Source: an uncultured Candidatus Saccharibacteria bacterium (lineage in GTDB: Bacteria > Patescibacteriota > Minisyncoccia > Phycocordibacterales > UBA918). From it: a stretch of 64,000 bases of DNA. The notes under the pieces are model-generated. The model did not search any database, had not been told where the DNA came from, and saw only the letters and a list, made by a program, of their open reading frames with translations. The position numbers and the translations under genes were made by a program. Positions 13,501 through 35,289 of this stretch are shown piece after piece; positions within the stretch are counted from its first letter, which is position 1, and each line of letters opens with the position of its first letter. The stretch lies in NCBI GenBank assembly GCA_964402035.1, contig CAYOAM010000002.1, positions 106,111 to 170,110 on the forward strand, read 5' to 3'.

Positions 13501-14190
13501 TCCTCCATCGAGTACGGTAAACACTTCGGTTGCTCCATCAAAAATATTTAAAATATCTCCAGTACCACTTTGCGTGATCGTAAGTAGTGTCGAAGCAGAT
13601 GTACTTGCAAGTGAAGTCGACGTGTCACTTCGCAAAAATTGTGAAGACGTCAGTCCATCAAGACGATCTGCTTCAAAGGCGGCAGGAACGGTTCCTAAAA
13701 TTTTGCGTGGAGACATTTCCCCATCCCAACTTGGTGAGCCAGCAGAACCACCAACTTCAATACCCAGATACAGCGTTTGATTAAAATCGACTGATGTTAG
13801 CGCAGTACTACTTCCAAGCATCACACTAAAAAGTCCATTCCTAACTGTGATGCGATCTCCAGCCGCTGTACTTCGATCCTCGGTCCATACTGCAGTAGTT
13901 GTCGCGGCAGTCGGAGATGCGAGCAACCAGAATCGCATATGGTATGTTCCATCAGCAACCGTGACACCACCAGCATTCGTTAACTTGCCCTGATAATTTA
14001 TTTGAAAATTAGGCGCAGCTTCTGTTTGAGTAAATCCTACAAACACCATGGCAACAAAAAGACTCACAACACATGCAGTGCTGATTAATTTTCTTGCTAC
14101 CCAAGAACGATTTACTTTGTACATACTTAGCTTTTTCGACTGCTCTAAAAAAAGCGCTGCGTATTGCGCTCTCAATATTGTACCGTTCAA
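4576..14190 (-). CDS. Giant multi-domain surface protein of about 3200 aa with tail-fibre-like repeats, an LVIVD beta-propeller, a parallel beta-helix, a CBM-like domain and a C-terminal peptidase S74 intramolecular-chaperone domain.
   Basis: There is one uninterrupted 9.6-kb ORF. The N-terminal signal or TM segment is KLISTACVVSLFVAMVFVGF. The track start at 14190 is a TTG, and an ATG at 14124 (MYKVNRSW...) is the more likely start. Domain signatures are itemised in the sub-features below. Confidence 0.85.
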   Translation of the reverse strand: MNGTILRAQYAALFLEQSKKLSMYKVNRSWVARKLISTACVVSLFVAMVFVGFTQTEAAPNFQINYQGKLTNAGGVTVADGTYHMRFWLLASPTAATTTAVWTEDRSTAAGDRITVRNGLFSVMLGSSTALTSVDFNQTLYLGIEVGGSAGSPSWDGEMSPRKILGTVPAAFEADRLDGLTSSQFLRSDTSTSLASTSASTLLTITQSGTGDILNIFDGATEVFTVLDGGNVGVGTTTPITRLAVNGTTTATNFNASSGEILTYNQAAVFSIVENESMFAGLGAGLNKSTNGQNTGFGFNALRSDTTGAFNTAFGHNALYTYNSAGGSNSAFGEGTLYANQSGESNSAFGRAALDANVSGGFNNAFGNSSLGANDDGAENSAFGYSALGSNVTGDQNTAIGNSALSNSSGNTNTGVGYQAGNTFSSGSNNTFLGANASSIATSLNNATAIGANAAVEISNALVLGALGSNAVNVGIGTSTPQWTLQVASTTPYLAITDTNAGTNQKHWLFSNLSGIFSIGTSSDDLTTTSSLFSITNSSTTLARSFSVTGTGTSTAVNGINIASGCFAVNNVCVGAGSTIDGSGDTNRIAYWSDTDTLTSNAGFTFDGTVLGAPSLLAVGSSTIGGGTQQTGLTINGGATTTGNMYLGGKLTIGTTTTDVATSTKILVHAGTLVQTQGDPIPLGTYDTLGLARQVFVSGKYAYVADSASGLQIFDISNPDLPTLLGTYDTSGTSYGVYVAGKYAYVADDTAGLQIIDISNPFAPRLARLYNTPGLASGVYVSGQYAYVADGSAGLQILDISNPFIPRLAGTFNTSGIANGVVVNGKYAYVADGNAGLQTIDISNPSSPTLASTTNTSGSSLAVAQAGKYVYIADSGSGLQIIDVADPSQPAIVGNFDTAGTANGIYVTGKYAYIADSASGISVINVASATAPYQVGTYDTVGSALGTYVAGKFAYVADDSAGLRIFDIGGIDVPAANIGALAANQVNIAENLVVDNNAYINGGLNVGDGGLLVTGQGSFSKASSTSLANIYALNANITDSTFNGIADVMQISHSATGTAPAAGIGTGLLFSTQDAGLNATATARIAAVFTNTAIATPQSALTFSTKNSATVGLVEMARLTSLGNFGLGTTTPNWTLQVASSTPYLALSDIDASTDNKHWLLSNLGGTFSIGTSSDALTATTSLLSITNNGFVGFGTAAANTKMEVVGGAAGTETGLLSLRSNGASAGTASTLRFINSTTAAATQGRGEIAVIRSADTSADFVVRVANITPVVTEQFRINGQSGSIGFGTSSPSARFAIHTPASYGSTTLFALASSTATATTTLFSISNTGSTTARNGIDIATGCFAMNGTCLPATALTSLNGQTGATQIFATTSSDGGFGFSSGSNIHTLNIPQASSINALGLLTSSDFTIFGNKLGSTSIDTSAELLSILGDETGTGSLVFNTNPSFGGNVSFASTVTQNATTTYLVASSTIRIIGGTSFPTSPLEGTMYFRTDRGQMYTYASGTWQGDRSTATFIVAASDSNNKEKADYIADGVRDEVEINRAINAAYVAGNASSTHGGIVYLLEGNYYLGTSTRISTSESASIVLATGTTMIGAGNGTKLVVASSTLSDSVNNYAIYSVAPYVRVSNLSMDGNIHNHHVSQGWDGLYFNEGSASSTIENLYVQDFGGSNSAAVRVKANNVRIIDNQIIDSGDRSIYAGSANVGQYTYGLMVRGNTIRGSGVRGVDAAQLIGADVSHNNISGVAFDGIKIGEDSREVMVTDNILAYIAGSGIAVDYSFTPPRAITIRGNSISSTTGSAISAFGMSDSVIDGNVIYNAAGNSADSNIFLLGDQNIISNNQITDFEGTGYAIEISGFLAGSTDNTLSGNRYSGPGAERISDGGTNTRYLETNRITLDTPGEVGYSLLTMTGSTSVALANLTQLGTGDIFNLANVDGSLFTVTNTGRVGIGSTTPTAKLSINSDTPTYGSELITNGNFDTDASSWNLGACVAWSAGNIVSNVSGCTGSSASTTFAVVAGKTYQLTLNISSTTREQVTYFLSPSVNAYQNWGPFGAGTSTVTFDSGVTGTETITFTGNTVANTSAWALDSVSIKEISTTSRAFTINDISGIPILTLGGKQDGNIAIGSNALYTSTSSIQNVAIGDNALRNNTNGIENTAVGYNTLTFNTTGFYSVAVGTNALFSNTVGSNNTAVGTNALLNNTSGNYNTASGAFVLSSNTTGTYNTGNGYGALNSNTTGTFNTAVGWDALLRSTSGANSVAIGAAALYLNRSATATVAVGYGAGLGVSGVTASQNNVFIGTLAGSGNTTGNNNVLVGYGAGNNLTSGSNNIVLGYDIDAPNALATNTLNIGNILFGTNINGTQGTLSSGSLGIGTTTPNWTLQVASTSAYFALTDTDAGTDQKHWLLSNVGGVFSIGTSSDALTATSSRFTITQEGNVGLGMSNPTTRLQLPDDQYSSLGTSADAKFVWETADADANRLNLILPENDGTNVPVFVVGDASVDNVDLTVFNGASDPLVVVMNDGGTNYSSFDASGVFGLTNLSVTASDNLSLTSGTGASEAINFYTNAGSSLRMTVLNGGNVGIGTSSPNWTLNIASSTPYLALTDTDAGTNMKNWLISNLGGVFSIGTSTDSYSATSTKFSISMATTSINTGLDVYSGAITYDPVANNTYIERLNTGPIEFENDAGVLSWINLPISASSTSGAVQSFSAQIDSNQLFTIYGQSNGSGALQKARSVFGTSTNTVLDSTNVPYGSVLIADGALCVDNGAGNTCASSARTRGFVYAEGSSLAGLDLAEVYLSTDLTLQKGEVVMFDPDHARHVSRFDTAVASTTSTRFAGVVSSDPGLLLGGFTDDVTAEAKIPLALAGRVPVRVSNEGGVIAIGDPISVGGEPGYAARATSTGVIIGFALDAETFATTSTSTIDVFLNYTHRFADNDFYIDPVSGNIGIGTTSPQYALQVVGDVAAQSFVNVSTESAKKDITHISASTTDAIIADLKNIQVAQYRYNTEEESAPLRLGLIAEEAPSAVLSADGKGVDIYKLATFNIAATQALSLKVDSLETRVVSLETLLAGGGAAVGSSGVLGVLHDLGITIENGVAYFKGLFADTLTVGTSEKRTGITLYDEATGEPYCLSIENGETKTVAGECVVVRPVVEEIPNDPPIDPPPPAEDVPPEGGDPVIEPVPDPEPAPEQSPEPSPEPAPESGDGG
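4579..4750 (-). other. Pro/Glu-rich low-complexity C-terminal tail of the giant protein (PNDPPIDPPPPAEDVPPEGGDPVIEPVPDPEPAPEQSPEPSPEPAPESGDGG).
   Basis: Direct translation. The tail lies distal to the S74 autoproteolytic domain and would be released if self-cleavage occurs. Confidence 0.6.
5010..5330 (-). other. Peptidase S74 / intramolecular chaperone auto-processing domain (endosialidase and tail-fibre type) inside the giant protein.
   Basis: The segment STESAKKDITHI...LRLGLIAEEAPSAVLSADGKGVDIYKLATFNIAATQALSLKVDSLETRV matches the S74 consensus (SDERLKxNI ... GfIAQEvEEv.PE.V ... dG...v.Y..L.plLieAiKEL). A coiled-coil-like stretch follows. Confidence 0.65.
6301..6456 (-). repeat. Intragenic repeat module, copy 4 (GIGTSSPNWTLNIASSTPYLALTDTDAGTNMKNWLISNLGGVFSIGTSTDS).
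   Basis: It is one of four copies of a 150-nt, 50-aa module of consensus G[IL]GT[ST]TPNWTLQVAS.TPYLA[IL]TDTDAGT[ND]QKHWL[LF]SNLGG.FSIGTSSDALTAT. I verified it by reverse-complement translation. Confidence 0.8.
6935..7086 (-). repeat. Intragenic repeat module, copy 3 (LGIGTTTPNWTLQVASTSAYFALTDTDAGTDQKHWLLSNVGGVFSIGTSSDALTATSS).
   Basis: Same module as copy 4, verified by translation. Confidence 0.8.
7200..7710 (-). repeat. Second block of NT..G..AL-type short repeats (tail-fibre or phage-fibre-like: NTAVGYNTLTFNTTGFYSVAVGTNALFSNTVGSNNTAVGTNALLNNTSGNYNTASG...).
   Basis: Direct translation. The periodicity of about 13-15 aa also shows up in the antisense ORF 7070-7579 of the track. Confidence 0.6.
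8550..9300 (-). other. Right-handed parallel beta-helix (PbH1 / pectate-lyase-like) region of the giant protein.
   Basis: Repeated motifs NNQIIDSGDRSIYAGSAN, GNTIRGSGVRGVDAA, SHNNISGVAFDGIKIG, TDNILAYIAGSGIAVD, IRGNSISSTTGSAISAF and DGNVIYNAAGNSADSNIF have PbH1-type spacing. Confidence 0.6.
10664..10815 (-). repeat. Intragenic repeat module, copy 2 (GLGTTTPNWTLQVASSTPYLALSDIDASTDNKHWLLSNLGGTFSIGTSSDALTATTS).
   Basis: Verified by translation. Confidence 0.8.
11270..12150 (-). other. LVIVD-type repeat (beta-propeller) region, about eight repeats of YAYVAD..(A/S)GLQI(I/F)DISNP..P.
   Basis: Translated repeats such as GKYAYVADSASGLQIFDISNPDLPTLLGTYDTSG, GKYAYVADDTAGLQIIDISNPFAPRLA and GQYAYVADGSAGLQILDISNPFIPRLAG. 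Confidence 0.65.
12622..12775 (-). repeat. Intragenic repeat module, copy 1 (GIGTSTPQWTLQVASTTPYLAITDTNAGTNQKHWLFSNLSGIFSIGTSSDDLTTTS).
   Basis: Verified by translation. Confidence 0.8.
12840..13320 (-). repeat. First block of NT..G..AL-type tail-fibre-like short repeats (NTGFGFNALRSDTTGAFNTAFGHNALYTYNSAGGSNSAFGEGTLYANQSGESNSAFGRAALDAN...).
   Basis: Direct translation. Confidence 0.6.
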
Positions 14191-14261: not shown

Positions 14262-15833
14262 CTAAATTGTCGCTATTGTTTTCTTTTCTTGTTTACTGAG
14301 CTTTGTGTAGATAAGCAACAACATGAGTAATAGGAAAAAAGCGAACGTCCAGCGGCTAAGTATCGAAAGTATGTAATCGGTAAATGTTGTTTCAGGAACC
14401 GCAGTCATAGGGATCATGTTTAATGACGGAACAACGTGCAAGGTACCCTCCGCTTTTGAAAGACTTCTATTTTTGTAATCCAACACAAATACTGAAATCG
14501 GGTAACTACCGATATCTCGGATGGCCGAGATAAGTCCAGTATAAGCCGTTTTTTGTTTATTTATTCTCAATAAAAATGAAAATTCTTTAGTACTATCAAC
14601 AGAATCGTGCAAAGTAACAATGATAGTTTTTAGATGCTCAGGAAGCTCTTCATACGGTATATTTATTTCAAACGGACTTAAATTATCTATAGCTAGCTCT
14701 TTGCCGATGAATGAAACCTCCTTTCCGTTTTGATAAAAATGTATAGCACTAAATGAAAAAGGTTTATACAGGGGTGCAGTCTCGAATTCTTGTATCGGAG
14801 TGGGACTTTCAGAATTAGGATTCTGACGAGCAACCCGCACAATTGCGCCTGATGAGCTATTGCCGATTTTATCGTACGAGAATAGTGTATAGTAGTGCCG
14901 TTCTGAAGCGCTAAAAGCCCCATTATCACGAAAAGAAGTGTCTAACCCTTCATATATCAATTCACCATCAAATGGGTCTTTGGGATAGCTTATAGAGCTT
15001 CTTATGATGCGTACATGACTAAAGTCTTCACTTAGCGGATTTTTCCACATGAGCACAGCATCATTTCCGTCAGGGGCACCCCGCAAGAGGGAAACGTTTG
15101 GCGGGGCCTCTAGGTCGAGATCGCGATCAGTTACAAAAATATCTTGTCGTAGTACGGTCTCATTGCCTGATCGATCTGTCGCAATAATCCTAAATTCATA
15201 ACGAGTATGTGGCTTCAAATCTACAATGTGTGTGGAGTGTCGTCTTAGTAACGTTCGTTCTACTAAGGCACCCATTTCAAATGATGACGAAATCCCCCAC
15301 GAAACAGTTGCGCGCGTTGGAATTGAAGTCTCCCAGTATAAAGTTGCACTATGTTTATCAACGGTTATGCGAAAATTTGTGATCTGAGGAATGATAGGTA
15401 CTACAGCACCGCCTCCCCCTGCACCAGTTACAGTAGGACTTGAAGTCGCTAGAGCAAACGTTGTATCGGATGTGGTTGCTGAGCGTGCACTGATATTTCC
15501 GACGGCATCAAACGCCGTAATGTTGTAATCGTATGTCGTACTATCAGTAAGTCCGGTATCTGTGTATGCAAGAAGCGCTGTCGTTGCAATCTGGACGTTA
15601 TCACGAAAAATTTGATACCCAGTGACCGCTATATCATCGGTCGATGCATCCCAAGTAATATCAATAGCATCGCTATCCACCGCGGTTGCCAAAACATTCA
15701 GCGGTATAGTAGGAGCTCCCGTATCAGCCGCAACAACACTTTGCGAGATAGTAAATGTATCAGTAACAGCAAACGAGACATTATTACTAACCAGGATTGC
15801 ACATATAGTTATGAATAATAAAACATATTTCAT
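14262..15833 (-). CDS. Fibronectin type III domain membrane protein with an N-terminal signal peptide and a C-terminal TM anchor.
   Basis: The segment DAIDITWDASTDDIAVTGYQIFRDNVQIATT is Fn3-like, and a second Fn3-like segment follows (RITVDKHSATLYWETSIP). The signal peptide is MKYVLLFITICAILVSNNVSFA. The C-terminus has a hydrophobic helix (FAFFLLLMLLLIY) followed by a basic stretch. Confidence 0.7.
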   Translation of the reverse strand: MKYVLLFITICAILVSNNVSFAVTDTFTISQSVVAADTGAPTIPLNVLATAVDSDAIDITWDASTDDIAVTGYQIFRDNVQIATTALLAYTDTGLTDSTTYDYNITAFDAVGNISARSATTSDTTFALATSSPTVTGAGGGGAVVPIIPQITNFRITVDKHSATLYWETSIPTRATVSWGISSSFEMGALVERTLLRRHSTHIVDLKPHTRYEFRIIATDRSGNETVLRQDIFVTDRDLDLEAPPNVSLLRGAPDGNDAVLMWKNPLSEDFSHVRIIRSSISYPKDPFDGELIYEGLDTSFRDNGAFSASERHYYTLFSYDKIGNSSSGAIVRVARQNPNSESPTPIQEFETAPLYKPFSFSAIHFYQNGKEVSFIGKELAIDNLSPFEINIPYEELPEHLKTIIVTLHDSVDSTKEFSFLLRINKQKTAYTGLISAIRDIGSYPISVFVLDYKNRSLSKAEGTLHVVPSLNMIPMTAVPETTFTDYILSILSRWTFAFFLLLMLLLIYTKLSKQEKKTIATI

Positions 15834-16582
15834 AAGGCGAGCGCGGTAATTGTTGTTGTCGCTGTATATGTCCCTGGAGCCTGACTTACAGAACCTCCTA
15901 TGCCGACTCTGAAGCGTATTTGCGTCAAAGTCCCCGTGGGGGTATTCGCTGAAGATCTATACACAATTGTCTGTGCTACTGTCGAAAGTCCATCCCAGCA
16001 TGCAAAATTCGTGTCACCAGAGCCGGTATTGCAGCCTATCCCATCATCTTTGAATCGTGTTGCAATATCGGTACCTTCGGGAGAAAATCCAAGATGTGAT
16101 TCACTTGCCACCGTAGAGAATATGTAGTCGGGATTTGCACCAGCTGGTACATAATCCGCAATCGTATTTGCACCAAATTTCATTGCAGGGCTTGTCGAGG
16201 CAGCAATGGTGAGCTGATATCCACCTGAACTATCAGTAGTCGCAATAACGGTTGTAGATCCGTTACTTTCACCGCCCGTCACCCCACCGAGCGTAGGAGA
16301 CAGCGTAACATTAGTTGCACCAGAAAGTGCTAAATAGGCGGCCTGTAAGGCTTGGTAACCAGCACTCAGATTGTAGGAGGTGCTACTTGAAAAACCAGTT
16401 GCAACTTCCCCTATCGTATCTTCAAGTTTGTACGACGTCGACGAGCTAAATGATCCACCAATATTGATACTGTCGCTCTCGATACGATAACTAGTACTTT
16501 GCATGACTTGTGCCGATGCCGTAGACAGCGAGAGAAGAACAGTGACGACCGCAATACCAATGTGGCGTGGAGATTTACACAT
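15830..16582 (-). CDS. Secreted protein, paralog of 17592-18296. It is a possible WxL-like (degenerate) cell-surface protein.
   Basis: The signal peptide is MCKSPRHIGIAVVTVLLSLSTASAQ. The protein is S/T/G-rich. Shared paralog motifs are GY.[LM]TIAAS..PAM, DD...CNTGS.DT....CW.GLS and the C-terminal .GTYTATTT[IL]TA, which resembles the WxL C-terminal signature (..YT.TL.WTL) but lacks the Trp. Confidence 0.45.
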   Translation of the reverse strand: MCKSPRHIGIAVVTVLLSLSTASAQVMQSTSYRIESDSINIGGSFSSSTSYKLEDTIGEVATGFSSSTSYNLSAGYQALQAAYLALSGATNVTLSPTLGGVTGGESNGSTTVIATTDSSGGYQLTIAASTSPAMKFGANTIADYVPAGANPDYIFSTVASESHLGFSPEGTDIATRFKDDGIGCNTGSGDTNFACWDGLSTVAQTIVYRSSANTPTGTLTQIRFRVGIGGSVSQAPGTYTATTTITALAL

Positions 16583-16594
16583 AGATTTGACGCT

Positions 16595-17584
16595 TTACTT
16601 TCTCTTTATTTCAAATGTCCGTACTATAAAACGTATGCAGAAAAAGACGAGAGCTAGAGCCAGAACAGCGAGAGCTAACAGCTTCCAGGGGACTACGTAG
16701 AACGTGACGCTCTTGGTGTCAATAATATTGTCGTAGCCTCGATTAATTTTTATGTCTGCCGTGTATCGTCCAAAAAGATATGGCCTGTCCCAGCTCAGTT
16801 CACGAAGTCGTACTGATTGTGGCAATGAAAACCATGGGTCAGCGACAACAACGCCAACCTCCTCACCCAGCATATTTTTTATACTTAGAACGCCATAAGG
16901 ATTCAAATGTACCGAACCAGTGTTTTTGTACAGAACTTGAAAATGTATTGGCCCGTTTGCATAAAAAGGTGTATCAGGAATGGTTTTAAAACTCTGCAAC
17001 TCACCACTTTTTTCTATATCTCCGGGCACCGTGACAAAAAACAAAGCCCCGATTCGAGAAATGATAACTGAACCTGATTTTGCCCCACTCTGCACTGGCT
17101 TTTCTCCTGATTCTGGTACCGATGTCGTAGTAACAAGCACACTACCATACAACCCCCCCGGTTGCGCATCGGCAGGTACAGAAATAGTCACTGGTATACG
17201 AGCTCGCTCGCCCTGCCCTAGTTCAAACGTTTTTTCCGGAAACTTAAAGTAATCCTTAAGTGAGTACGGACCTCGATCGTCTCCAAGTAATACTACCGTC
17301 TGATCAGGATCATCAGAACCTTTTGTATCCTCAACCTCGAGTGAAAAAAGGCGTCTATCACCCATTCTATTCGTCACCATAAGCTCGACAACTCGATCCT
17401 TGCCTGCCTCTATTGTGAGATCTACTTTTGTTGGTCCTACAACAAAATCGCCAAAAACCTGATCACCGCCGGGAATCTGTTCAATTGGGTATGCAGCGTC
17501 AGCCAGTGGTATGCATATAAAAAAAGTACCAAAAAGCAGAAATAGAGCGGTGTATGGTACCACGCTACGTATTGTTAGATGCAT
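16595..17584 (-). CDS. Cell-surface protein with an N-terminal signal peptide, an Ig-like beta-rich ectodomain and a C-terminal TM anchor. Its architecture is DUF916/DUF3324-like (CscA-like).
   Basis: The N-terminus is MHLTIRSVVPYTALFLLFGTFFICIPLADA. The C-terminus is WKLLALAVLALALVFFCIRFIVRTFEIKRK. The segment VGPTKVDLTIEAGKDRVVELMVTN fits an Ig-like strand pattern. The gene sits between the two WxL-like paralogs. Confidence 0.4.
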   Translation of the reverse strand: MHLTIRSVVPYTALFLLFGTFFICIPLADAAYPIEQIPGGDQVFGDFVVGPTKVDLTIEAGKDRVVELMVTNRMGDRRLFSLEVEDTKGSDDPDQTVVLLGDDRGPYSLKDYFKFPEKTFELGQGERARIPVTISVPADAQPGGLYGSVLVTTTSVPESGEKPVQSGAKSGSVIISRIGALFFVTVPGDIEKSGELQSFKTIPDTPFYANGPIHFQVLYKNTGSVHLNPYGVLSIKNMLGEEVGVVVADPWFSLPQSVRLRELSWDRPYLFGRYTADIKINRGYDNIIDTKSVTFYVVPWKLLALAVLALALVFFCIRFIVRTFEIKRK

Positions 17585-17591
17585 ACCTGTA

Positions 17592-18296
17592 TTAATTAGC
17601 CGTTGCAGTCAGTGTTGTAGTTGCGGTATAGGTATCTTCAGCGATTGAAGGAGCCGGGTTTGAAGTAATCTGCGTTCTAAAGAAAAAGGTGGTCGTTGCT
17701 CCTGAAGCAGTTGTTGCAGTTGTTCTTAGTATTGTAGATGTTGCAGACGAACTTAAACCATACCAACATGAAGAAGATCCACTGGTATCTGCAGAGCCAG
17801 TATTACATGCTGCCGTATCGTCAAGAAATTTTTGTGCTAGGTCTGAAGTAGTGCTAGCCGAGACAGTATATGCAAACTCACCAGTATTGGCACCGACTGA
17901 ATGTGAAAAGTCAGGTATCCCCGCCGTTGCATTGGTATAATTCGGAATACTACCTCCTTGAGTATTTCCTTGCATTGCAGGAGTACCACTCGCGGCAATC
18001 GTCATCGTGTAGCCGGTGTTGTTGTTGGTGTAAACACGAACTTGCGTTGCCCCGTTCGCAGTACCTCCTGTGAGGCCGGGGATTGCGGTATCCATGGTGA
18101 CATCAGCTCCAGTGCCGACAAAAGAAATTTCAGCAGTCACCGACTGTGAAATCGAAAACTGATCAAAGGCCTGAGAACGAATCACCGTCGGCTCAAGAAA
18201 AACATACATTGCCAAAAAAGCAACAAGTACAAATCCAGCGACAAGTGTCGACCTTCTAAAATCTTCTATCAGACCTGCAATATGTACTCTAGGCAT
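17592..18296 (-). CDS. Secreted or anchored protein, paralog of 15830-16582. It is a possible WxL-like (degenerate) protein.
   Basis: An N-terminal hydrophobic segment (LVAGFVLVAFLAMYVFL) is present. It shares motifs with 15830-16582, including the C-terminal EDTYTATTTLTATAN. Confidence 0.45.
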   Translation of the reverse strand: MPRVHIAGLIEDFRRSTLVAGFVLVAFLAMYVFLEPTVIRSQAFDQFSISQSVTAEISFVGTGADVTMDTAIPGLTGGTANGATQVRVYTNNNTGYTMTIAASGTPAMQGNTQGGSIPNYTNATAGIPDFSHSVGANTGEFAYTVSASTTSDLAQKFLDDTAACNTGSADTSGSSSCWYGLSSSATSTILRTTATTASGATTTFFFRTQITSNPAPSIAEDTYTATTTLTATAN

Positions 18297-18376: not shown

Positions 18377-19099
18377 CTACGTTGACGTGCTAACTTCCTC
18401 CTCTATTGGAACCATTAGAAAACGATACTGTGATTCTGATTTATTTTTAAAATGAGGCGTCACAATACCTGATGTACCCTCAGGATCCTTCTGTACGCTC
18501 ACTTCGTCTGAAAATGAATCGGCAATTTCGGTCAGTGAACGAGTGTCACTCGGTGGAACAACCACCATACCACTTTGGTTTTTTTTATCAGTGGCAGATG
18601 CTTCTTGTTGTACTGCAGTGCTTTGTACTGCCGCCGTTTCCGTCCTATCACCCATACTATAGAGCTCAGCAGCAATTGAACGTAAAACCTCTACTACGGT
18701 AGCAGATGACACCTGCGAACTCGGAAATGCTATATTGGCGTAGAAAAAAGCACCTACCACTACACTTGCACATAAAACCAAACCAGCTTTTGCTAACACG
18801 AGAGCTCGTGACTGCGGCACTGGCAATACCTGCATAACAACCTTTCTTGAACCAATTTCGACGCGCTCTCGAAGCCGCTCCTTTCGGACTCGTTCAGCAT
18901 TTTGACGTTTTATTTCTTCAGTATTTTCAACAAAAACAGCAAGGGATTTTGCATCTACAAACCATTGCCTACCAACTCGAGTACCAAGCACTTTCTTTTC
19001 GCGTGCCAATCGAGCAACATAGTCATTGGTATAACCAAATTGGCGTCCCGCTTCCACAGCGGACATCAATCCATCTTCTATATTGGCTGTCTGATCCAT
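18377..19099 (-). CDS. Single-pass membrane protein with an N-terminal excisionase / MerR-type helix-turn-helix.
   Basis: The segment GRQFGYTNDYVARLAREKKVLGTRVGRQWFVDAKSL matches the HTH_17 / excisionase DNA-binding motif (G..Y..rL.r.g...g.r.Gr.W). The TM helix is LVLAKAGLVLCASVVVGAFFYANIAF. The C-terminal part is about 110 aa. Confidence 0.65.
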   Translation of the reverse strand: MDQTANIEDGLMSAVEAGRQFGYTNDYVARLAREKKVLGTRVGRQWFVDAKSLAVFVENTEEIKRQNAERVRKERLRERVEIGSRKVVMQVLPVPQSRALVLAKAGLVLCASVVVGAFFYANIAFPSSQVSSATVVEVLRSIAAELYSMGDRTETAAVQSTAVQQEASATDKKNQSGMVVVPPSDTRSLTEIADSFSDEVSVQKDPEGTSGIVTPHFKNKSESQYRFLMVPIEEEVSTST

Positions 19100-19223: not shown

Positions 19224-20135
19224 CTAGCGTGAGAGTTGCTTCAATACACTCGATACCGCCGCAAGATTATATGAAGCTTTATATACCGGTCCTGTTTTTA
19301 TGCTCTCACCTCTCTCGTACACCAAAACCCTTTGCAAGAAAACACTAGAGAAACTAACGCAGAAAGCCACCATAACGGCCAACGGGACCAGGGCAAATAC
19401 AAATGGTCTAGCCACCGATCTCTCTATAACCGGAATTTTATCGACAGCACTCGTAATACCGACTCTTTCTAACTTTTCGACAAAATTTGGAGGCACTGCC
19501 ACGACATGGTGCGGGTGCGGAATAGTATGCACGTTCTTTTCCTTCTGTTCTTCAATCTCTAAGTCAGTAATACTAAGTTCGCCCTCCATAAGCGGTTCAC
19601 TTTTCTTAAAACTCAAATCTGCATTTTTTTCAATGACATCAACCTCGAGTTTTAACTCCTCGTCATCCCCATCAATATTATCACTACCTTCAACTACAAC
19701 TTCAGTATCATGGTCTAATTCAGCTACAACATCTCCAACTTTATTTAGTCGAATATGGACTGCCTCATCGTCTTCTCGAGAAAACGGAGGATCTAGCGGA
19801 GCATTATCTCGCTCATACGTGATTTTAGTATGCAAAAGACGTTTCCGATATTCGGGCATTAGTGCTGGGTTATACAAAGAATTATGAATCTCGTGCGGTA
19901 GTTCTTTCTTTACGAGTTCAATATGCTCCAATGTTTTCTCCTTGTTTGAACGTCTATTATTTTTTTTGTATGAAAGAACATCTTCTTCACGTACATACCA
20001 AACGCGACCGATGCGCTTTGCTTCAATCTTTCCAGCTCTAGAAAGCTGGCCTATATAGTCAGTTGTATAGCCGGTCTGATCAGCCGCATCTGATGCCTTT
20101 ATAAAACGCACGCCGTCTATATCAATAACATTCAT
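19224..20135 (-). CDS. Single-pass membrane protein with an N-terminal excisionase / MerR-type HTH. It is a paralog of 18377-19099.
   Basis: The segment DQTGYTTDYIGQLSRAGKIEAKRIGRVWYVREEDV is the same HTH family. A long acidic linker (DGDDEELKLEVDVIEKN...) follows. The C-terminal TM is PFVFALVPLAVMVAFCVSFSSVFL. Confidence 0.65.
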   Translation of the reverse strand: MNVIDIDGVRFIKASDAADQTGYTTDYIGQLSRAGKIEAKRIGRVWYVREEDVLSYKKNNRRSNKEKTLEHIELVKKELPHEIHNSLYNPALMPEYRKRLLHTKITYERDNAPLDPPFSREDDEAVHIRLNKVGDVVAELDHDTEVVVEGSDNIDGDDEELKLEVDVIEKNADLSFKKSEPLMEGELSITDLEIEEQKEKNVHTIPHPHHVVAVPPNFVEKLERVGITSAVDKIPVIERSVARPFVFALVPLAVMVAFCVSFSSVFLQRVLVYERGESIKTGPVYKASYNLAAVSSVLKQLSR

Positions 20136-28398: not shown

Positions 28399-30597
28399 CT
28401 AATTTGCAGGTTTCTTACCCGATTTAAGCTGCGCAATGTATCCGTCGCCTTGTTCTTTAAAATCAGGGAAATCTTTAGTTGCTTGTTCCAATATCTCGAT
28501 CGCTGTAGCAGTATCTCCACTCTCATTATGTGCAACCGCCAACGATACGCGTGTCTGCAAGTCGTTTGGATTCTTGGTTACACGGACACCCAGAATATCT
28601 TTAATGAGATCAAATCGCTTCGTATCATATGCTGCGCGCAATACAAAGTCGTTTTGATAGTAGGTATCTTTATAATCAGGAATATTGAGCTCGTTAAATA
28701 GAGCGTCATTTTTATCATACAGAGCAGCTGCCATGTAGAACATGCGAGCGTTACTGTAGTTTGGTGCAAGATCGTATGCCTTCTTAAAAGTAGCAACTGC
28801 AGATGGAATGTCATTGAGTTGTAGATGTGCCAAACCCTTCTCAAATAGAATCTGTTGCTTATTTGGAGAAAGAGCGAGCGCAGCATTCAATTCTTCTAAG
28901 GCATGCTTTGGGTCACCGGTCAGACGATAAAATGAACTAATGAACACACGTATACGCGCATCGTCAGGAGTATCAGAAATTTGGTTCACCAATTCTTCTT
29001 CAGTCTTTTTCTTAAACTTTGCCTTGTCAGCATCGGGCAAACCTTGCTGCTGTAGCGCTTCTTGTGTCACCCGTGTCAATTGTTCACGAATTTCTTGATT
29101 ACCGAATGAATTGCGGGACAGTGCGCGATCAAATGCGGCCAAGCGTAAATCAACTGTTTGTTCTTGAAAACCTCCTATAATGTCCGAAGCAGCCAAAAGT
29201 GCAGGCACATTGAGTACGTAGATACCGAACAATAACACCACACCCGCAACCGGCATAAAAATGTTATCAATGACTACCTTAGAGACCGCCGTCTTTTCAA
29301 AAGACGGCATTGCTACGCTCACGCGCGTATGGATGAGTGCGAGAATGGTGCCATAAAAGAGATAGCTGATTATGTTGTCGAATACAAACAAGTTATGGAA
29401 CATATATCCCGCCAAGAGACCAAGGAGTACCCCTTGTTCAGTGACTGAAAATTCACCCACATCAGCAATGCCCTTCCACGAGCGTATGCGTGGTCGAATC
29501 GCAACGTAATAGATCGCTGAAAAATAGATAGCAAAATATGCAACGAAGCCAAGTACCCCTCCTGCGATGAGCCAGTCAAAAAAGATATTATGCACGCGAT
29601 CAAACCACGGCTCTTCACCATGAAGACGAGGATCATAATTTTGATTGAACACATAATTAAAATTCTCTTGACCCCACCCAAGGACTGGGCGTTCCTTCAC
29701 ACCCTCCCAAGCCATATTCCAAATTACCAAACGAGTATCAAGCGAACGAAGAGAGAATGCCGAGGCTATACGCGCAAGTGCTTCATTGTTTTGCACAAAT
29801 GAGCTCGTACGCGCGACATAGAGCGTCCCCACAAGGACGACGACTAGCAGCAACAATCCGGCGGCATAATTTCGTATGCGGACAGCCCCTGCTGAAAAAA
29901 GCGCTATGTAGGACGCAGCGACACCTAACCCCACCACAAGACCTCCAAACGTACCACGAGTAGCTGTCTGATAGAGCAAGTATGCAAAAATCAGAGCAAA
30001 TCCTATGTACAGGCGTTGCATATTTTTTGAGGTCGCACGTACGGAGAGATATCCTGCAATAAAGACATGAAAGAGCATGTAGATGGCGAAATATGCAGCG
30101 TTGCCAAGCGTTGCATCGACACGCACCCCTCCCTGATTAATTTGAATTGCCCCGCCCAACTGTGCAAATGCATAAATGGATACCAGTGAAGCCGCTGCTA
30201 TAGTCGTGTTGAGGAAATAATTCCACAATTTCTGCGTATTCAAGATATGTGCCGCAGCGAGTACATAGAGTCCAACATGAAAAATAGCAACAAAGCCTTC
30301 CATGCGCTCGAAGTTGCTCCAGAGACTTTTTTGCGTATTAATACCCGAGAGATCAGCAGCGAGAATAATACCCAACCATGACAGTACCGCAACTAGAATA
30401 TACGAAAAACGCGGTCGGTATTTTGGCTCATACAGAGCAAGCATTGCCCACGCAACAAAGACAACCTCTACAACTACTCGGAAAATAAAATTCTTTCCGG
30501 TGATGAATGGAAAGAATAAAGAGTTAGTAACAACCAATGGTAAAAATGGGAGAACAAAAATACCTGCAAGGGCAACCGATCGTAGTAAATCTTTCAT
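28399..30597 (-). CDS. O-antigen ligase / Wzy-like polytopic membrane domain fused to C-terminal tetratricopeptide repeats.
   Basis: The N-terminal roughly 450 aa has at least 10 TM helices in a Wzy_C-like arrangement. The C-terminal roughly 250 aa has TPR-like repeats (ALALSPNKQQILFEKGLAHLQLNDIPSAVATFKKAYDLAPNYSNARMFYMAAALY). Confidence 0.7.
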   Translation of the reverse strand: MKDLLRSVALAGIFVLPFLPLVVTNSLFFPFITGKNFIFRVVVEVVFVAWAMLALYEPKYRPRFSYILVAVLSWLGIILAADLSGINTQKSLWSNFERMEGFVAIFHVGLYVLAAAHILNTQKLWNYFLNTTIAAASLVSIYAFAQLGGAIQINQGGVRVDATLGNAAYFAIYMLFHVFIAGYLSVRATSKNMQRLYIGFALIFAYLLYQTATRGTFGGLVVGLGVAASYIALFSAGAVRIRNYAAGLLLLVVVLVGTLYVARTSSFVQNNEALARIASAFSLRSLDTRLVIWNMAWEGVKERPVLGWGQENFNYVFNQNYDPRLHGEEPWFDRVHNIFFDWLIAGGVLGFVAYFAIYFSAIYYVAIRPRIRSWKGIADVGEFSVTEQGVLLGLLAGYMFHNLFVFDNIISYLFYGTILALIHTRVSVAMPSFEKTAVSKVVIDNIFMPVAGVVLLFGIYVLNVPALLAASDIIGGFQEQTVDLRLAAFDRALSRNSFGNQEIREQLTRVTQEALQQQGLPDADKAKFKKKTEEELVNQISDTPDDARIRVFISSFYRLTGDPKHALEELNAALALSPNKQQILFEKGLAHLQLNDIPSAVATFKKAYDLAPNYSNARMFYMAAALYDKNDALFNELNIPDYKDTYYQNDFVLRAAYDTKRFDLIKDILGVRVTKNPNDLQTRVSLAVAHNESGDTATAIEILEQATKDFPDFKEQGDGYIAQLKSGKKPAN

Positions 30598-30680
30598 ACG
30601 GGTGAAACTATACCATTCTGGATTTCTAAAGACCAGCGCAGTTAGAATACATCAAGTTAGAGCACGTTTTATGACACTCA

Positions 30681-31142
30681 TCAAGATGTAAATCGCTTTA
30701 AAAGTTCTGAACTCGATTGCACCTTCCCACCACGGCCGACATTAAATACCATTTCTATACCATGTGCACGACACACATCGGTTTCGGGAATATCTTTTTC
30801 ACTTTTGCGATCGCCACCATTTGCAAAAATAGCAGGCTGTATGACTTCAAGTGCTTCGGATACATCACTACGCTCTGATTCCAAAATGTATGTCTCATCA
30901 ACACATGAAAACCCTTCAATAATTTCCGCTCGTTCATCCTGCGGCATAAAAGCTTTTCCCTTTTTCCGAACCAACCAAGAATCACCGTTGAGTATGACAA
31001 CAAGCTTTCCTTCAACACCCACGAGCGCTTTGGCCTCTTCGAACATCCGCAGATGTCCGACATGTACTGGATCAAAACCTCCACTCACAGCAACGGTCTT
31101 ACCAGAATGTTCTTTCGTGGATCGTTTATGGTAATAGCTCAT
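30681..31142 (-). CDS. Cytidylyl/adenylyltransferase-like protein, RfaE-domain-II-like (D-beta-D-heptose-1-phosphate adenylyltransferase-type fold).
   Basis: The nucleotidyltransferase motif GGFDPVHVGHLRMFEEAKALG (HxGH) is present. FANGGD and ...HGIEMVF align with the RfaE-II LVKGGDY and ANGGEV regions. Confidence 0.65.
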   Translation of the reverse strand: MSYYHKRSTKEHSGKTVAVSGGFDPVHVGHLRMFEEAKALVGVEGKLVVILNGDSWLVRKKGKAFMPQDERAEIIEGFSCVDETYILESERSDVSEALEVIQPAIFANGGDRKSEKDIPETDVCRAHGIEMVFNVGRGGKVQSSSELLKRFTS

Positions 31143-31211
31143 ATAGAGTATCGTACCAGTTTAAAACTACTCCAGAAAATCAAAGGTTCCAAGTTTAGTT
31201 AAAAATTAAAC

Positions 31212-31976
31212 TCACAGACCTTCGTTCCCTCCTTTCTCCTTTTTCCAGAACTCAATCAGCGCTTCTGCAAGATAGAAGTCGAGCATAGTATTGATATCAA
31301 CTGACCGCTCACCGGGTACGACATACGGACGTGTCACGATATCATCGGCACCATAGAGTTTTTTGTGCACCATCACAATATCGCGTTTTGATGCATACAC
31401 TGCCCCATTGCGCTTATAGACCGGCATAAGTTTTTGTCGTGTATTTTCTGTCTCATGATAATTTTCGACATACTGCATGAGGCGATCATCTTCGGTAATT
31501 CGCTTTGCTTTTGCGGGATGATGTTCATTGACTTCATAGACACTCATCACTGAATCAGCACCTGTTTCCACGAGCTTTTGCAGTGCACCATCAATATCTT
31601 CGGTTGTCGTAAATGGTGTCGTTGGTTGGAGCATGACCACATGATCAAAGCGAATGCCTTCGAGCGCCTCCAGGGTCTCGACCGCATGCTCGATAACAGG
31701 AAGTGACGGACTTTTGTCTTGCGCCAATTCAGGTGGGCGTTTCAAAGCATGTACTCGATCACCGCCAAGCTGGCGTGACACTTCCAAAATCTCATCATCA
31801 TCTGAAGATACAACTAATTTTGTAATCCACGCACTCTGCGACGCAGCCTCAATCATGTAGCCAATGAGTGGCTTGCCACCCAATGGTCTAATATTTTTTC
31901 TTGGTACACCTTTTGAACCACCTCGAGCGGTGATGATCGCAATAATAGCGGGGCGCTTATTATATTCTTTATCCAT
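31212..31976 (-). CDS. Acylneuraminate cytidylyltransferase family enzyme (CMP-nonulosonic acid synthetase, NeuA/PseF/LegF-like).
   Basis: IAIITARGGSKGVPRKNIRPLGGKPLIGYMIEAA is the CMP-NeuAc synthetase N-terminal signature. Confidence 0.8.
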   Translation of the reverse strand: MDKEYNKRPAIIAIITARGGSKGVPRKNIRPLGGKPLIGYMIEAASQSAWITKLVVSSDDDEILEVSRQLGGDRVHALKRPPELAQDKSPSLPVIEHAVETLEALEGIRFDHVVMLQPTTPFTTTEDIDGALQKLVETGADSVMSVYEVNEHHPAKAKRITEDDRLMQYVENYHETENTRQKLMPVYKRNGAVYASKRDIVMVHKKLYGADDIVTRPYVVPGERSVDINTMLDFYLAEALIEFWKKEKGGNEGL

Positions 31977-31979
31977 AGA

Positions 31980-32927
31980 TTAATGAGTAGCGAGATACGC
32001 TGATAATTTTTTTGCCATAAAAACGTCAGTGCCAATGCGTGAATCATGTGTCAAGCCGCCGGTATGTGGAACGATAATACAATTCTGATGTACTTTAGCG
32101 TATTCAACAAGTGGGTGATTTTTAAACTCTTTCAATAGATCGAGTTCGTGAGCCAATACATCAGTGGCGTAGCCACCAAGCGTTCCCGCTTCTAGCGCAC
32201 GCAACACTGCCGCTTCATCTACAATTTCACCACGTGACGTATTGATAAGTACGGCTGATGGCTTCATCTTTTGTAAGACCTCCTTTGTAAAAAGTCCTTG
32301 CGTATCATCCTTAAGATGCACATGGATTGAAATCGCATCACTTTCCTTGAGCAGTGTCTCAAAATCTACTTTAGTATATTGTGGAAACTCTTCGGGAGAT
32401 ACGTTAGGGTCGCAGAATATAATACGCATACCCCAGCCTGCCGCACCACGTGCAACAATTCTTCCTAAACGTCCCATTCCCAAAATACCAAGTGTCTTGC
32501 CCGACAGGCTTCTGCCACGAAATTCCTCGAGATGCAGTTCATGCCGCTGTATCGAAGCAAATGCCCATGGGTTGTATCGATAGAGATCTATCAGTAAACC
32601 AAATGCGAGCTCCGCTGTACTCGTGATGGTGTTTAAAAATTCATTTTCGCCACGAAGTGATAACACTTCGATACCTCGATCTTTTGCTGATATAAGATCG
32701 AGGTGATTGAGACCCGTGGTAGCCGTTGCGACAGCTCGCAAATTCGCTCCGTTTTTAAGCACCGTATCGTTTACCGAAAGTCCGATACGCACAAAGAGCG
32801 CGTCATACTCAGAAATCCGCGCCTCGAGTTCTTCTTGGGTAAGTTGTACATAATCAACTTCGCCTAGTGCATCAAGCACTGGTCGAGCTTCCGGCGAGAA
32901 ATCAGCAACAGCACAGAGAATCTTCAT
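31980..32927 (-). CDS. D-isomer-specific 2-hydroxyacid dehydrogenase family oxidoreductase.
   Basis: The NAD-binding motif GILGMGRLGRIVA is present, and the conserved catalytic-domain layout matches PGDH / GlyR-like proteins. Confidence 0.75.
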   Translation of the reverse strand: MKILCAVADFSPEARPVLDALGEVDYVQLTQEELEARISEYDALFVRIGLSVNDTVLKNGANLRAVATATTGLNHLDLISAKDRGIEVLSLRGENEFLNTITSTAELAFGLLIDLYRYNPWAFASIQRHELHLEEFRGRSLSGKTLGILGMGRLGRIVARGAAGWGMRIIFCDPNVSPEEFPQYTKVDFETLLKESDAISIHVHLKDDTQGLFTKEVLQKMKPSAVLINTSRGEIVDEAAVLRALEAGTLGGYATDVLAHELDLLKEFKNHPLVEYAKVHQNCIIVPHTGGLTHDSRIGTDVFMAKKLSAYLATH

Positions 32928-33052
32928 ACCTAGAACATGTTTAAAAACCCATCTACTTCGTTGTCTGCGTCGCTCAAACCACTCATCGTATATCGAATAC
33001 TCGTCGGGTTCTCGCTTCTTGACGCCTCGTATCTGTAGTTTTTATCCATGTT

Positions 33053-34042
33053 CTATAAAGCTGACACTTCTTCCCAGTTGTAGATCCACTGATCTTCTGC
33101 GGGGCTCGTCTGATCTTTCTTAGGACTTGCAAATCGGCCGCGGTAATAGTCACGATTTAGTAATTCGACATCGGTCATTGCGCGAGTCTCAGTCCCAATC
33201 ATGACTTCCCAATCTGGACGCTTGGCTAGAATCTGTGCTTTTTGTTCATCCTTCGAGAGTTTGCGAAAATCAGAAAGTTCTTTTAGGAGCATTGGCGTCA
33301 TCGACACCGGACCATCTTTTGTCTCACTAGGAGCAAGTACCGTGTAGTGTCGTTCAACATAATCAGCACCAAGCATGATCGCGGTCTTAGCGGCGATGAT
33401 GTCATTGTCTTCAATCTTGGTGTGATCCGACCATCCAACTTCGGGAGTGTACTGCCGCAGCCACTCCATGCGTGCAAGATTGCACATGGGAAGTGTATTT
33501 GGGTAACTCGTCACACAGTGAAGAAACACAAAACGCTTGCCGAGCTCTTTCATGAGCGCAGCGGTTTTTTCTATCTCTTCATCAAACGTTGCGCCGGTTG
33601 AAATAATAAAATTATCAAAGTGTTCAGCGAGTTCACGCAGCAGTGGGTAGGATGCACAGTCATAGCTAGGCACCTTGATCCAACTTCCCTTCCAGGAAAG
33701 TTTTGCGACATCCTTGATTCTGTGACGCGCAAAAATAGCGGTAAGCGGGATAACATTATTCGCAACACAGGTATCAATAAAAAACTGGTGATCGTCAATG
33801 GAGAGATCGAGCTTTGAAAGACGGTCGACTTCGGCTTGATATGGTCGTTTGATCGCGGTCTGCTTCCCTGTGGAGTCCACCGTCCCTTCCTCAAAACGCT
33901 CACGCTTGGTGACATCCGCTGACCATATCGACTGCATCTTGACCATGTCTGCACCATTCTCTGCTGCGGACTTTATCATCGCTGCCAATGTCTCACGAGA
34001 TCCATTATGGTTTTGGCACACCTCGGCAATTATTTTTGTCAT
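33053..34042 (-). CDS. NeuB-family (N-acetylneuraminate/pseudaminate/legionaminate synthase-like) TIM-barrel aldolase.
   Basis: IIAEVCQNHNGSRETLAAMIKSAAENGADMVKMQ matches the NeuB signature (IAEIG.NHNG....A..LI..A...GAD.VKFQ). I take the start at MTKIIAEV (34042). The C-terminal region does not look like a canonical SAF domain. Confidence 0.7.
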   Translation of the reverse strand: MTKIIAEVCQNHNGSRETLAAMIKSAAENGADMVKMQSIWSADVTKRERFEEGTVDSTGKQTAIKRPYQAEVDRLSKLDLSIDDHQFFIDTCVANNVIPLTAIFARHRIKDVAKLSWKGSWIKVPSYDCASYPLLRELAEHFDNFIISTGATFDEEIEKTAALMKELGKRFVFLHCVTSYPNTLPMCNLARMEWLRQYTPEVGWSDHTKIEDNDIIAAKTAIMLGADYVERHYTVLAPSETKDGPVSMTPMLLKELSDFRKLSKDEQKAQILAKRPDWEVMIGTETRAMTDVELLNRDYYRGRFASPKKDQTSPAEDQWIYNWEEVSAL

Positions 34043-34115
34043 ATTACTTCTAACCATTATGTGACGATAAACGTTGCTTAACGGTACCAAAAAACAAGCC
34101 TTAAAACAACCGCCA

Positions 34116-35285: not shown

Positions 35286-35289
35286 ACGA

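Follow-up and report, generated by a model that had tools for sequence, protein, structure and literature searches.

A stretch of 64,000 nucleotides from an uncultured Candidatus Saccharibacteria bacterium (contig CAYOAM010000002.1 of GenBank assembly GCA_964402035.1, positions 106,111 to 170,110 of the forward strand; here called the window) contains a cassette of surface protein genes, P1 to P4, with the neighbouring genes P5 and P6. On balance, P1, P2, P3 and P4 together with the giant P5 probably encode an usher-less, chaperone-assisted surface fibre built by donor-strand complementation. This fibre would represent a compact version of the Pam pilus in a single-membrane bacterium of the candidate phyla radiation (CPR). 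Judged by sequence, its proposed chaperone is homologous to WxLIP, the membrane-anchored partner of the WxL proteins.

The genes lie on the minus strand, and all positions refer to the window. P1 (17592-18296, minus strand) is an open reading frame (ORF) of 234 amino acids for a small secreted protein, the candidate major fibre subunit. P2 (16595-17584, minus strand; ORF of 329 amino acids) is WxLIP/DUF916-like and is the candidate membrane-anchored chaperone, the counterpart of PamC and PamD. P3 (15830-16582, minus strand; ORF of 250 amino acids) is a PamT-related small subunit and a candidate tip or adaptor. P4 (14262-15833, minus strand; ORF of 523 amino acids) is the candidate fibre terminator and membrane anchor and corresponds to PamR by its architecture. 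P5 (4576-14190, minus strand), a giant secreted ORF of 3204 amino acids, is a candidate adhesin associated with the cassette. P1 and P2 are separated by 7 bp and P2 and P3 by 12 bp, P3 and P4 overlap by 4 bp, and P4 and P5 are 71 bp apart (137 bp if the later P5 start of the gene caller is correct).

The Pam pilus was found in Ca. Mycosynbacter amalyticus, and cryo-electron microscopy structures of two pilins have been presented (Troman et al., bioRxiv 10.64898/2026.03.03.709456). Its operon encodes the single-domain tip subunit PamT and the FimC/PapD-like chaperones PamC and PamD, which have a C-terminal membrane helix. The RbmA-like PamR has two FnIII domains, a membrane helix and, at its N-terminus, an additional strand, and has been proposed as the terminator and anchor of the pilus; a protein resembling tail fibres is co-located with the operon. 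PamA and PamB are two-domain pilins in which a linker connects an N-terminal beta-sandwich to a C-terminal truncated Ig domain. Their linker is the donated strand, and the linker and its binding site are the most conserved parts of these pilins. The Pam pilins carry paired cysteines and occur mainly in Saccharimonadia and Microgenomatia (10.64898/2026.03.03.709456). The WxL clusters were described by Siezen 2006 (PMC1534035). Strand complementation between WxLIP and WxL has been predicted (Hassan et al. 2023, PMC10599100), and EfmWxLIP1 was solved in complex with a WxL protein (PDB 9i25); a further structure of EfmWxLIP1 is 9i1y.

P2 is a WxLIP homolog with a membrane anchor

The P2 protein alone matched the Pfam model PF06030 (WxLIP_PGBD, the former DUF916) with 19.6 bits and an E of 9.5e-4, where the threshold is 27.3. 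The same model was matched by 44 of 45 P2 relatives at E <= 0.01 (best 1.6e-8), and one relative carries the NCBI name 'DUF916 domain-containing protein'. When the P2 family profile was run against the PDB, WxLIP1 of E. faecium (EfmWxLIP1; 9i25_C and 9i1y_A) was found at 2.8e-7. The hhalign comparison of the P2 family with seven WxLIPs from Lactobacillales plasmids gave a probability of 95.8% and an E of 7.6e-9.

The AlphaFold2 model of P2 reached a mean predicted local distance difference test (pLDDT) score of 91. It contained an N-terminal hydrophobic helix, beta-sandwich domains at residues 34-155 and 177-297 and a C-terminal transmembrane helix at residues 300-323 (16616-16687, minus strand) with the hydrophobic sequence WKLLALAVLALALVFFCIRFIV. 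An earlier annotation made from the letters alone, the sequence-only reading, had described a signal peptide, an Ig-like strand pattern and a C-terminal anchor, in agreement with this model. In Foldseek searches, WxLIP was on top (about 4e-12) and RbmA was second (about 1e-10), followed in third place by the chaperones of chaperone-usher systems, CfaA, CsuC, DraB, Caf1M and CupB2 (6e-9 to 1e-6). The highest target-normalised template modelling scores (TM-scores), about 0.5, were obtained with the chaperone-usher chaperones. The alignment to WxLIP extended over 275-285 columns and therefore covered both P2 domains. The Pfam models of the PapD family (PapD_N/PapD_C) were not matched by P2 or its 45 relatives; the resemblance to these chaperones is one of fold only.

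P2 had also been proposed to be a DUF916/DUF3324 partner of WxL proteins. The DUF916 part of this proposal held in the Pfam, PDB, hhalign and Foldseek comparisons. The DUF3324 part was not recovered by sequence: the Pfam DUF3324 model was unmatched in the 45 P2 relatives, and domain 2 of P2 scored 0.3% against WxLIP in hhalign.

Residues 156-186 of P2 (17027-17119, minus strand) form a loop and a strand between the two domains, a candidate for a G1-like complementing strand. In residues 156-176 the pLDDT was 56-78 and no secondary structure was predicted. The strand SVIISRIGALFFV follows at 177-186, and R177, G179, L181 and F183 are invariant across the 45 relatives. The region aligned with the part of EfmWxLIP1 that lies beyond the DUF916 core and appears to be the equivalent of the WxLIP hairpin described in PMC10599100. 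Taken together, these results make P2 a membrane-anchored homolog of WxLIP whose two domains fold in a chaperone-like manner.

P3 is related in sequence to PamT, and its module is fused to cargo in other genomes

P3 matched the NCBIfam model NF058579 ('CPR-type pilus protein PamT') over residues 10-131 with 36 bits and an E of 4.8e-9. All of the 41 P3 relatives matched it as well (best 4.5e-14), and all remained under the equivalog cut-off, which is 240 bits. The sequence match indicates that P3 is related to PamT, and by the curated cut-off it is not a member.

The P3 protein consists of a signal peptide, a region with three motifs and a pilin-like beta C-domain. In the AlphaFold2 model the pLDDT was above 90 for the C-domain (residues 80-250) and below 50 for residues 24-73, which were disordered. 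The three strand motifs, S-x-(S/N)-Y-x-(I/L), lie in residues 24-80 (16343-16513, minus strand). There, 12 of the 57 positions are invariant and another 15 nearly invariant, compared with 53/170 in the C-domain. No other part of P3 is as conserved as this three-motif region, which lacks order in the model of the monomer and is where the PamT model matches. Foldseek found nothing under E = 1e-3 for the C-domain. TasA (8aur) and TLP-1b were on top of the weak fold matches, which were mostly to donor-strand subunits and also included CS20, FimA, PapE, the cannulae, CfaB and CsuA/B.

Among 1.8 billion representative proteins, a profile search returned 1746 P3-related clusters at E <= 1e-3. Some large relatives end in a whole P3 module, and in these the three-motif region is an internal linker between the cargo and the C-domain; in PamA and PamB it is the linker that is donated. 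Fusions of this kind are P0346 (1205 amino acids, with Laminin_G_3 and Fn3 domains), P0242, P0304 and P0314. In one related locus (L092, 3033-11750), P1 and P2 are followed by P0314 of 2187 amino acids in the position of P3, and its last ~226 residues are a complete P3 module. This locus and the large relatives point to the P3 module as the part through which cargo is attached to the system. The joining of cargo through an end module is the logic of the two-domain tip adhesins of chaperone-usher pili. By analogy, the cargo-joining P3 module would share the logic of the 'large WxL' proteins.

Two variants of the P3 region were also seen. The locus L093 (4520-16664) encodes a P1-like protein, P2, a 380-amino-acid protein, P3 with an extra N-terminal domain, and P4. 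Directly after this cassette lies a diversity-generating retroelement with genes for bAvd, a reverse transcriptase, a target with the FGE-sulfatase/C-type-lectin fold and 23S_rRNA_IVP. In one metagenomic cluster P2 and P3 form a single ORF (P0243, 577 amino acids), either a genuine fusion or an artefact of read-through or assembly.

P1 and P3 are paralogs without a detectable WxL domain

P1 and P3 were 38% identical over ~146 residues (BLASTP E = 1e-23), and their family profiles aligned over 163 columns with an hhalign probability of 100% and E = 4e-47. By these comparisons the two Ser/Thr-rich proteins are true paralogs, far beyond chance, as the sequence-only reading had held from their common cysteine block and C-terminus. 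The two-cysteine block, C-N-T-G-S-x-D-T-x(2-4)-C-W-x-G-L-S, reads CNTGSADTSGSSSCWYGLS in P1 and CNTGSGDTNFACWDGLS in P3, with a Cys-Cys spacing that differs by two residues. Both cysteines (Cys164/Cys177 in P1, Cys184/Cys195 in P3) are invariant in both families. The C-termini, DTYTATTTLTATAN in P1 and GTYTATTTITALAL in P3, follow the common pattern TYTATTT[IL]TA, and serine and threonine make up 28% of each protein.

The P1 protein starts with an N-terminal hydrophobic segment and a conserved strand, followed by a pilin-like beta domain of ~175 amino acids, and was found in 73 related loci. The hydrophobic segment is closed by a Glu-Pro pair (residues 35-36, 18188-18193) that is invariant in 25 of 25 orthologs. 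The pair sits a few residues ahead of the likely signal-peptidase site and could mark a dedicated processing step. A type IV pilin was rejected for P1, as the likely cleavage site lies after and not before the hydrophobic segment.

The same reading had taken P1 and P3 for divergent WxL proteins in which the second Trp is replaced. The Pfam WxL model (PF13731) was unmatched by 41 P3 relatives at E <= 1. P1 had no match in Pfam or NCBIfam, its family did not match PamT, P3 had no match in Pfam, and sequence searches of the PDB with the P1 and P3 family profiles were empty. A WxL alignment was then made from 12 sequences encoded in annotated clusters on plasmids of Enterococcus, Lactococcus and Vagococcus. 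For a control, it recovered the solved WxL chain 9i25_A. Against this alignment, hhalign gave 0.5% for the P3 family, 0.4% for 297 diverse C-domains and 0.3% for the P1 family. Only the last strand(s) were aligned, with Y.ATTTLTA over Y.TTLTW.L, and the positions of the W.L motifs read GY.L and TA.L or TAT in P1 and P3. In the fold comparison of the P3 model the weak matches were mostly pilins, TasA and cannulae, and 9i25_A was outside the top 50.

WxL membership of P1 and P3 was therefore rejected: Pfam and the three hhalign runs were negative, whereas the P2/WxLIP comparison from the same loci, used as a control, reached 95.8%. The idea of a replaced Trp is compatible with the alignment of the last strand and is not supported statistically.

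P1 and P4 start with similar strands

The predicted mature N-terminus of P1, after the signal-peptide-like segment, is a stretch with alternating hydrophobic residues at positions 45-59 (DQFSISQSVTAEISF; 18120-18164, minus strand), the candidate donor strand. Its consensus in 73 orthologs is D.F.[IV].Q.[IV]T.E[IT]SF.

P4 matched the Pfam fn3 model in two stretches (4.6e-12) and has a C-terminal hydrophobic segment. Behind a signal peptide and a short N-terminal strand come the two Fn3 domains and further beta domains, and a membrane helix lies at the C-terminal end. The short strand at residues 23-36 (VTDTFTISQSVVAA; 15726-15767, minus strand) is P1-like and forms the predicted mature N-terminus. 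In the P4 orthologs the pattern D.F.[IV]...[IV]G.D lies immediately ahead of the first Fn3 domain. In the window the two strands read DQFSISQSVTAEI (P1) and DTFTISQSVVAAD (P4).

The P1 strand was compared with the N-terminus of P4 in 64 genomes by the best ungapped BLOSUM62 score. This score was 14.16 within the same genome, 12.16 across genomes and 7.09 for shuffled sequences. The within-genome score was reached by 0 of 10000 permutations, a result that is not a probability because related genomes are not independent. These results suggest that the P1 and P4 strands fit the same co-evolving partner, and their likeness agrees with the role proposed for the N-terminal strand of PamR. We infer that the strand 45-59 of P1 is the donor strand.

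The gene order is conserved in related genomes

In a scan with one genome per species, relatives of P2 were encoded at 167 places, and the best 80 of these loci were examined. The order P1-P2-P3-P4 on one strand was present in 70 of the 80; among the 59 loci with enough flanking sequence, 57 had it. The median gaps were 16, 3 and 2.5 bp. A P5-like giant was found directly after P4 or before P1 in 30/80 loci, and relatives of H1 or H2, the genes upstream of P1 in the window, stood upstream of P1 in 34/80. The conserved order supports the view that the cluster is a single surface-display operon with the Fn3 anchor and the giant. The resemblance to Firmicutes clusters that had been pointed out before was also evident. 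Two small paralogs flank a WxLIP-like protein and are followed by an anchor and a giant, as in the WxL clusters of Lactobacillales.

The relatives mostly carry labels of the Paceibacteria type (Kaiser-, Zambryskii-, Nomurabacteria and others). Closest to the window are metagenome-assembled genomes with the labels Patescibacteria, Paceibacteria, Kaiserbacteria, Zambryskiibacteria and Nomurabacteria, and many are named 'uncultured Candidatus Saccharibacteria'; all these labels are unconfirmed. Identical proteins are present on a metagenome contig of 461.7 kb (ENA ERZ3430527). In the metagenome-assembled genome binchicken_co346_105, two contigs hold one cassette copy each (L011 and L013).

Comparison with known surface systems

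The cassette shares with the Pam pilus the host superphylum and, in P3 and PamT, a sequence relation. Only in architecture and fold does P2 correspond to PamC and PamD, with its two beta-sandwich domains ahead of a C-terminal membrane helix. Only in architecture does P4 correspond to PamR, by its Fn3 domains, its membrane helix and the strand at its N-terminus. The P1, P2 and P4 families matched no Pam model in NCBIfam, a collection that may lack models of the other Pam proteins. Subunits with paired cysteines and an adjoining giant fibre-like protein occur in both systems, and neither cassette encodes an usher or another envelope-spanning machine. By analogy, the anatomy of the cassette follows the Pam scheme point for point, with the exception of the two-domain pilin. 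The Pam system has the two-domain pilins PamA, PamB and PamE and two chaperones, whereas single-domain subunits of ~240 amino acids and one chaperone are encoded here. The filament is known there, and here the genes alone. In addition, the PamT score is far under the cut-off, and the lineage labels are different (Paceibacteria-type, unconfirmed).

With the WxL/WxLIP (Csc) clusters of Lactobacillales and Listeria the cassette has in common P2, which is a true homolog of WxLIP in sequence and fold. In both, two small secreted paralogs stand beside the WxLIP-like protein, with a large adhesin, a small anchored protein and a helix-turn-helix (HTH) protein nearby, and the binding of the partner is predicted to occur by insertion of a strand that completes a beta-sandwich. 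In contrast to WxL proteins, P1 and P3 have neither W-x-L motif and were negative with Pfam and in the profile-profile comparisons, and DUF3324 is not detectable by sequence in P2. The anchor is an LPXTG protein there and an Fn3 protein with a membrane helix here, with no sortase in the region from H2 to P6. The host here is a CPR bacterium, and the WxL proteins have been described as docked to peptidoglycan and not as fibres. Judged by the domain that defines the WxL family, the cassette does not belong to it, nor is it an equivalog of the described Pam operon, although it would work in the manner of both a Pam pilus and a WxL complex.

The chaperones of the chaperone-usher pili (Pap, Fim, CFA/I, Csu, Caf1) were matched by the P2 fold, and PapE, FimA, CfaB and CsuA/B weakly resemble the C-domain of P3. 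N-terminal strands with alternating hydrophobic residues are found in both systems, as is a terminator-like subunit that has a strand and no acceptor domain. In P pili such a terminator is PapH, with a strand but without an acceptor domain. The chaperone-usher pili differ by their usher and outer membrane, and the candidate chaperone here is membrane-anchored. The scanned cassette proteins matched no usher family and no Pfam PapD or fimbrial family. The fibres of the TasA type and of archaea (TasA 8aur, TLP-1b 9ikk, cannulae 9h8b), which came out on top, though weakly, when the P3 C-domain was compared by fold, are extracellular fibres of monoderms or archaea built by donor-strand complementation. 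They differ in that they assemble without a dedicated two-domain chaperone, and no sequence relation to them was detected.

A possible assembly pathway and its alternatives

In the favoured reading, a Pam-like donor-strand fibre, all cassette proteins would be exported by Sec, as suggested by their signal-peptide-like N-termini. The C-terminal helix of P2 would keep it in the membrane, where the strand after its DUF916-like domain may complete the beta-sandwiches of P1 and P3, which would be open just after export. This step, proposed from homology and fold, is modelled on the predicted action of WxLIP on WxL (PMC10599100) and on that of PapD and FimC on pilins. The PamT-like P3 would begin the fibre or serve as an adaptor. 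The occurrence of the P3 module at the C-terminal end of giant adhesins elsewhere points to P3 as the subunit that carries cargo. P1 would be the repeating subunit, each donating its N-terminal strand to the previous subunit. The P1-like strand of P4 would cap the fibre, and its Fn3 domains and membrane helix would tie the fibre to the cell, as suggested by the strand similarity and the analogy to PamR. P5, and perhaps P6, may provide the surface that binds a host cell or a substrate, a role proposed from synteny only.

Several observations weigh against this pathway. The family is known from genes alone and no filament has been seen, so that every assembly step had to be inferred. The PamT match of P3 scored 36 bits against a cut-off of 240 bits and involved the N-terminal half only, and the fold matches of P3 to pilins were not significant (best E = 7.7e-3, TM-scores 0.2-0.5). 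A two-domain pilin of the PamA/PamB type is absent from the 64-kb window, where only P1 and P3 carry a pilin-like domain; P3 relatives with an N-terminal cargo, a linker and a C-domain occur in other genomes. The Pam pilins have been reported mainly from Saccharimonadia and Microgenomatia, not from the present lineage. The within-genome excess of the P1/P4 strand score is modest (14.2 vs 12.2), and part of the tree drives it.

The homology of P2 to WxLIP would also be expected if P2 were, as in the sequence-only reading, a permanent dock in a static complex of the WxL type, in which P1 and P3 were held 1:1 by strand complementation with no polymer formed, and P4 and P5 were separate. The layout resembles the Lactobacillales clusters (small WxL, WxLIP, big adhesin, small anchored protein), and the last strand Y.ATTTLTA resembles Y.TTLTW.L. 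We nevertheless regard a static complex as rather unlikely, since P1 and P3 failed every WxL sequence test while the P2/WxLIP control from the same loci passed, and since the WxL chain 9i25_A was not among the top 50 fold matches. A dock would also leave unexplained the co-varying N-terminal strand of P1 and P4 and the relation of P3 to PamT.

Self-assembly of P1 and P3 outside the cell into a chaperone-independent matrix fibre, like those of TasA or the cannulae, with P2 as an unrelated Ig-like surface protein, appears very improbable. P2 stands between P1 and P3 with gaps of a few bases in 70/80 loci and is homologous to a protein that was solved together with its WxL partner (9i25). The fold matches that speak for such a fibre, with TasA (8aur) and TLP-1b as the best for P3 and the cannulae also listed, are weak (E about 8e-3). 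Little credence is also given to the view that P1 and P3 form no fibre and are Ser/Thr-rich proteins of the cell envelope, S-layer-associated or substrate-binding, that merely share beta-sandwich folds. Such folds are common, P1 and P3 gave no significant fold match, and the proteins are known from sequence alone. This view is opposed by the specific sequence links to WxLIP and PamT, the strict synteny of the four genes, the conserved unstructured linker and the fusion of the P3 module to adhesin-type cargo. A sortase pilus was rejected, with no sortase gene from H2 to P6 and no LPXTG motif at the C-terminus of P1 or P3.

P5, P6 and the neighbouring genes

The cassette belongs to a head-to-tail run of genes on the minus strand in the order H2-H1-P1-P2-P3-P4-P5-P6. 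A scan for promoters and terminators gave no signal that exceeded the shuffled expectation.

P5 contains LVIVD beta-propeller repeats (Pfam, 1.3e-71) and a right-handed Beta_helix (8e-10). The mechanical ORF starts with TTG at 14190, and the gene caller placed the start at an ATG 22 codons later (14124-14190), which gives 3182 amino acids. From the later ATG, P5 has a normal signal peptide followed by APNFQINYQGKLT, and the mature N-terminus, FN.(Q/E)INYQGKLT, is conserved. No pilin domain of the P1/P3 type was found in P5 or P6. P5 was therefore rejected as a 'large WxL-like' fusion in the window; fusions of this kind exist elsewhere.

P6 (1752-4589, minus strand; 945 amino acids) overlaps the end of P5 by 14 bp and contains three Laminin_G_3 (ConA-like lectin) domains (Pfam, 2.5e-66). 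It is probably a further surface-binding protein of the transcription unit of P5.

H1 (18377-19099, minus strand; 240 amino acids) lies upstream of P1, and H2 (19224-20135, minus strand; 303 amino acids) lies upstream of H1. The two proteins are paralogous, each with an N-terminal domain like excisionase/HTH_17 and a central hydrophobic segment. They matched HTH_17 at 7e-5 and TIGR01764 below the threshold. H1 and H2 are possible membrane-bound regulators. The WxL clusters of Lactobacillales likewise hold an HTH protein.

The housekeeping genes gatB, obg, secA and murB lie upstream of the cassette. A block for glycan synthesis is also found upstream, at 28399-37026 (minus strand). It encodes a Wzy_C (O-antigen-ligase-like) protein with TPR repeats, a cytidylyltransferase, a NeuB-type nonulosonic-acid synthase and a UDP-glucose/GDP-mannose dehydrogenase. 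This block might serve for O-glycosylation of the Ser/Thr-rich P1 and P3. A modified serine has been reported on PamA (preprint 10.64898/2026.03.03.709456).

Implications for the family and its hosts

One cassette contains both the WxLIP-homologous P2 and the PamT-related P3 and thereby connects two systems known from separate descriptions, suggesting a common ancestry and a common mechanism for WxL clusters and Pam pili. It is possible, and we propose it only tentatively, that both are branches of one old usher-less donor-strand family of single-membrane bacteria with a membrane-anchored two-domain chaperone, of which the four-gene cassette, present in at least about 160 species-level genomes, would be the minimal form. 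If this is true, the WxL proteins, described as monomers docked to peptidoglycan, would exchange strands as well and might assemble into short fibres. In small WxL proteins of Enterococcus plasmids (L084:3519-5795 and L088:3498-5795), a strand NG.I.F and a proline-rich linker lie between the signal peptide and the WxL domain. It was this N-terminal strand that prompted the idea that WxL proteins may exchange strands.

For CPR bacteria a life in attachment to other cells is assumed, and the means of contact are largely obscure. The wide occurrence of the cassette and its gene order in 70/80 loci recommend it as a candidate for an organelle of attachment that belongs to the core of the Paceibacteria-type lineage. 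The Pam pilus was described only in 2026, from one cultured species and mainly in two classes (10.64898/2026.03.03.709456). This preprint mentions neither DUF916 nor WxL, and among the results listed by our literature search no publication joined DUF916 with CPR terms.

In conclusion, the cassette would be a simpler relative of the Pam pilus and a bridge at the sequence level between the WxL and the Pam literatures, for which no cross-citation was found in the library that was searched. If this bridge is real, structural and genetic studies of the WxL loci of the culturable Enterococcus, Listeria and Lactiplantibacillus could be models for how pili are assembled in CPR bacteria, the majority of which are uncultured, and the work on these pili would suggest a new mechanism for the WxL virulence loci.

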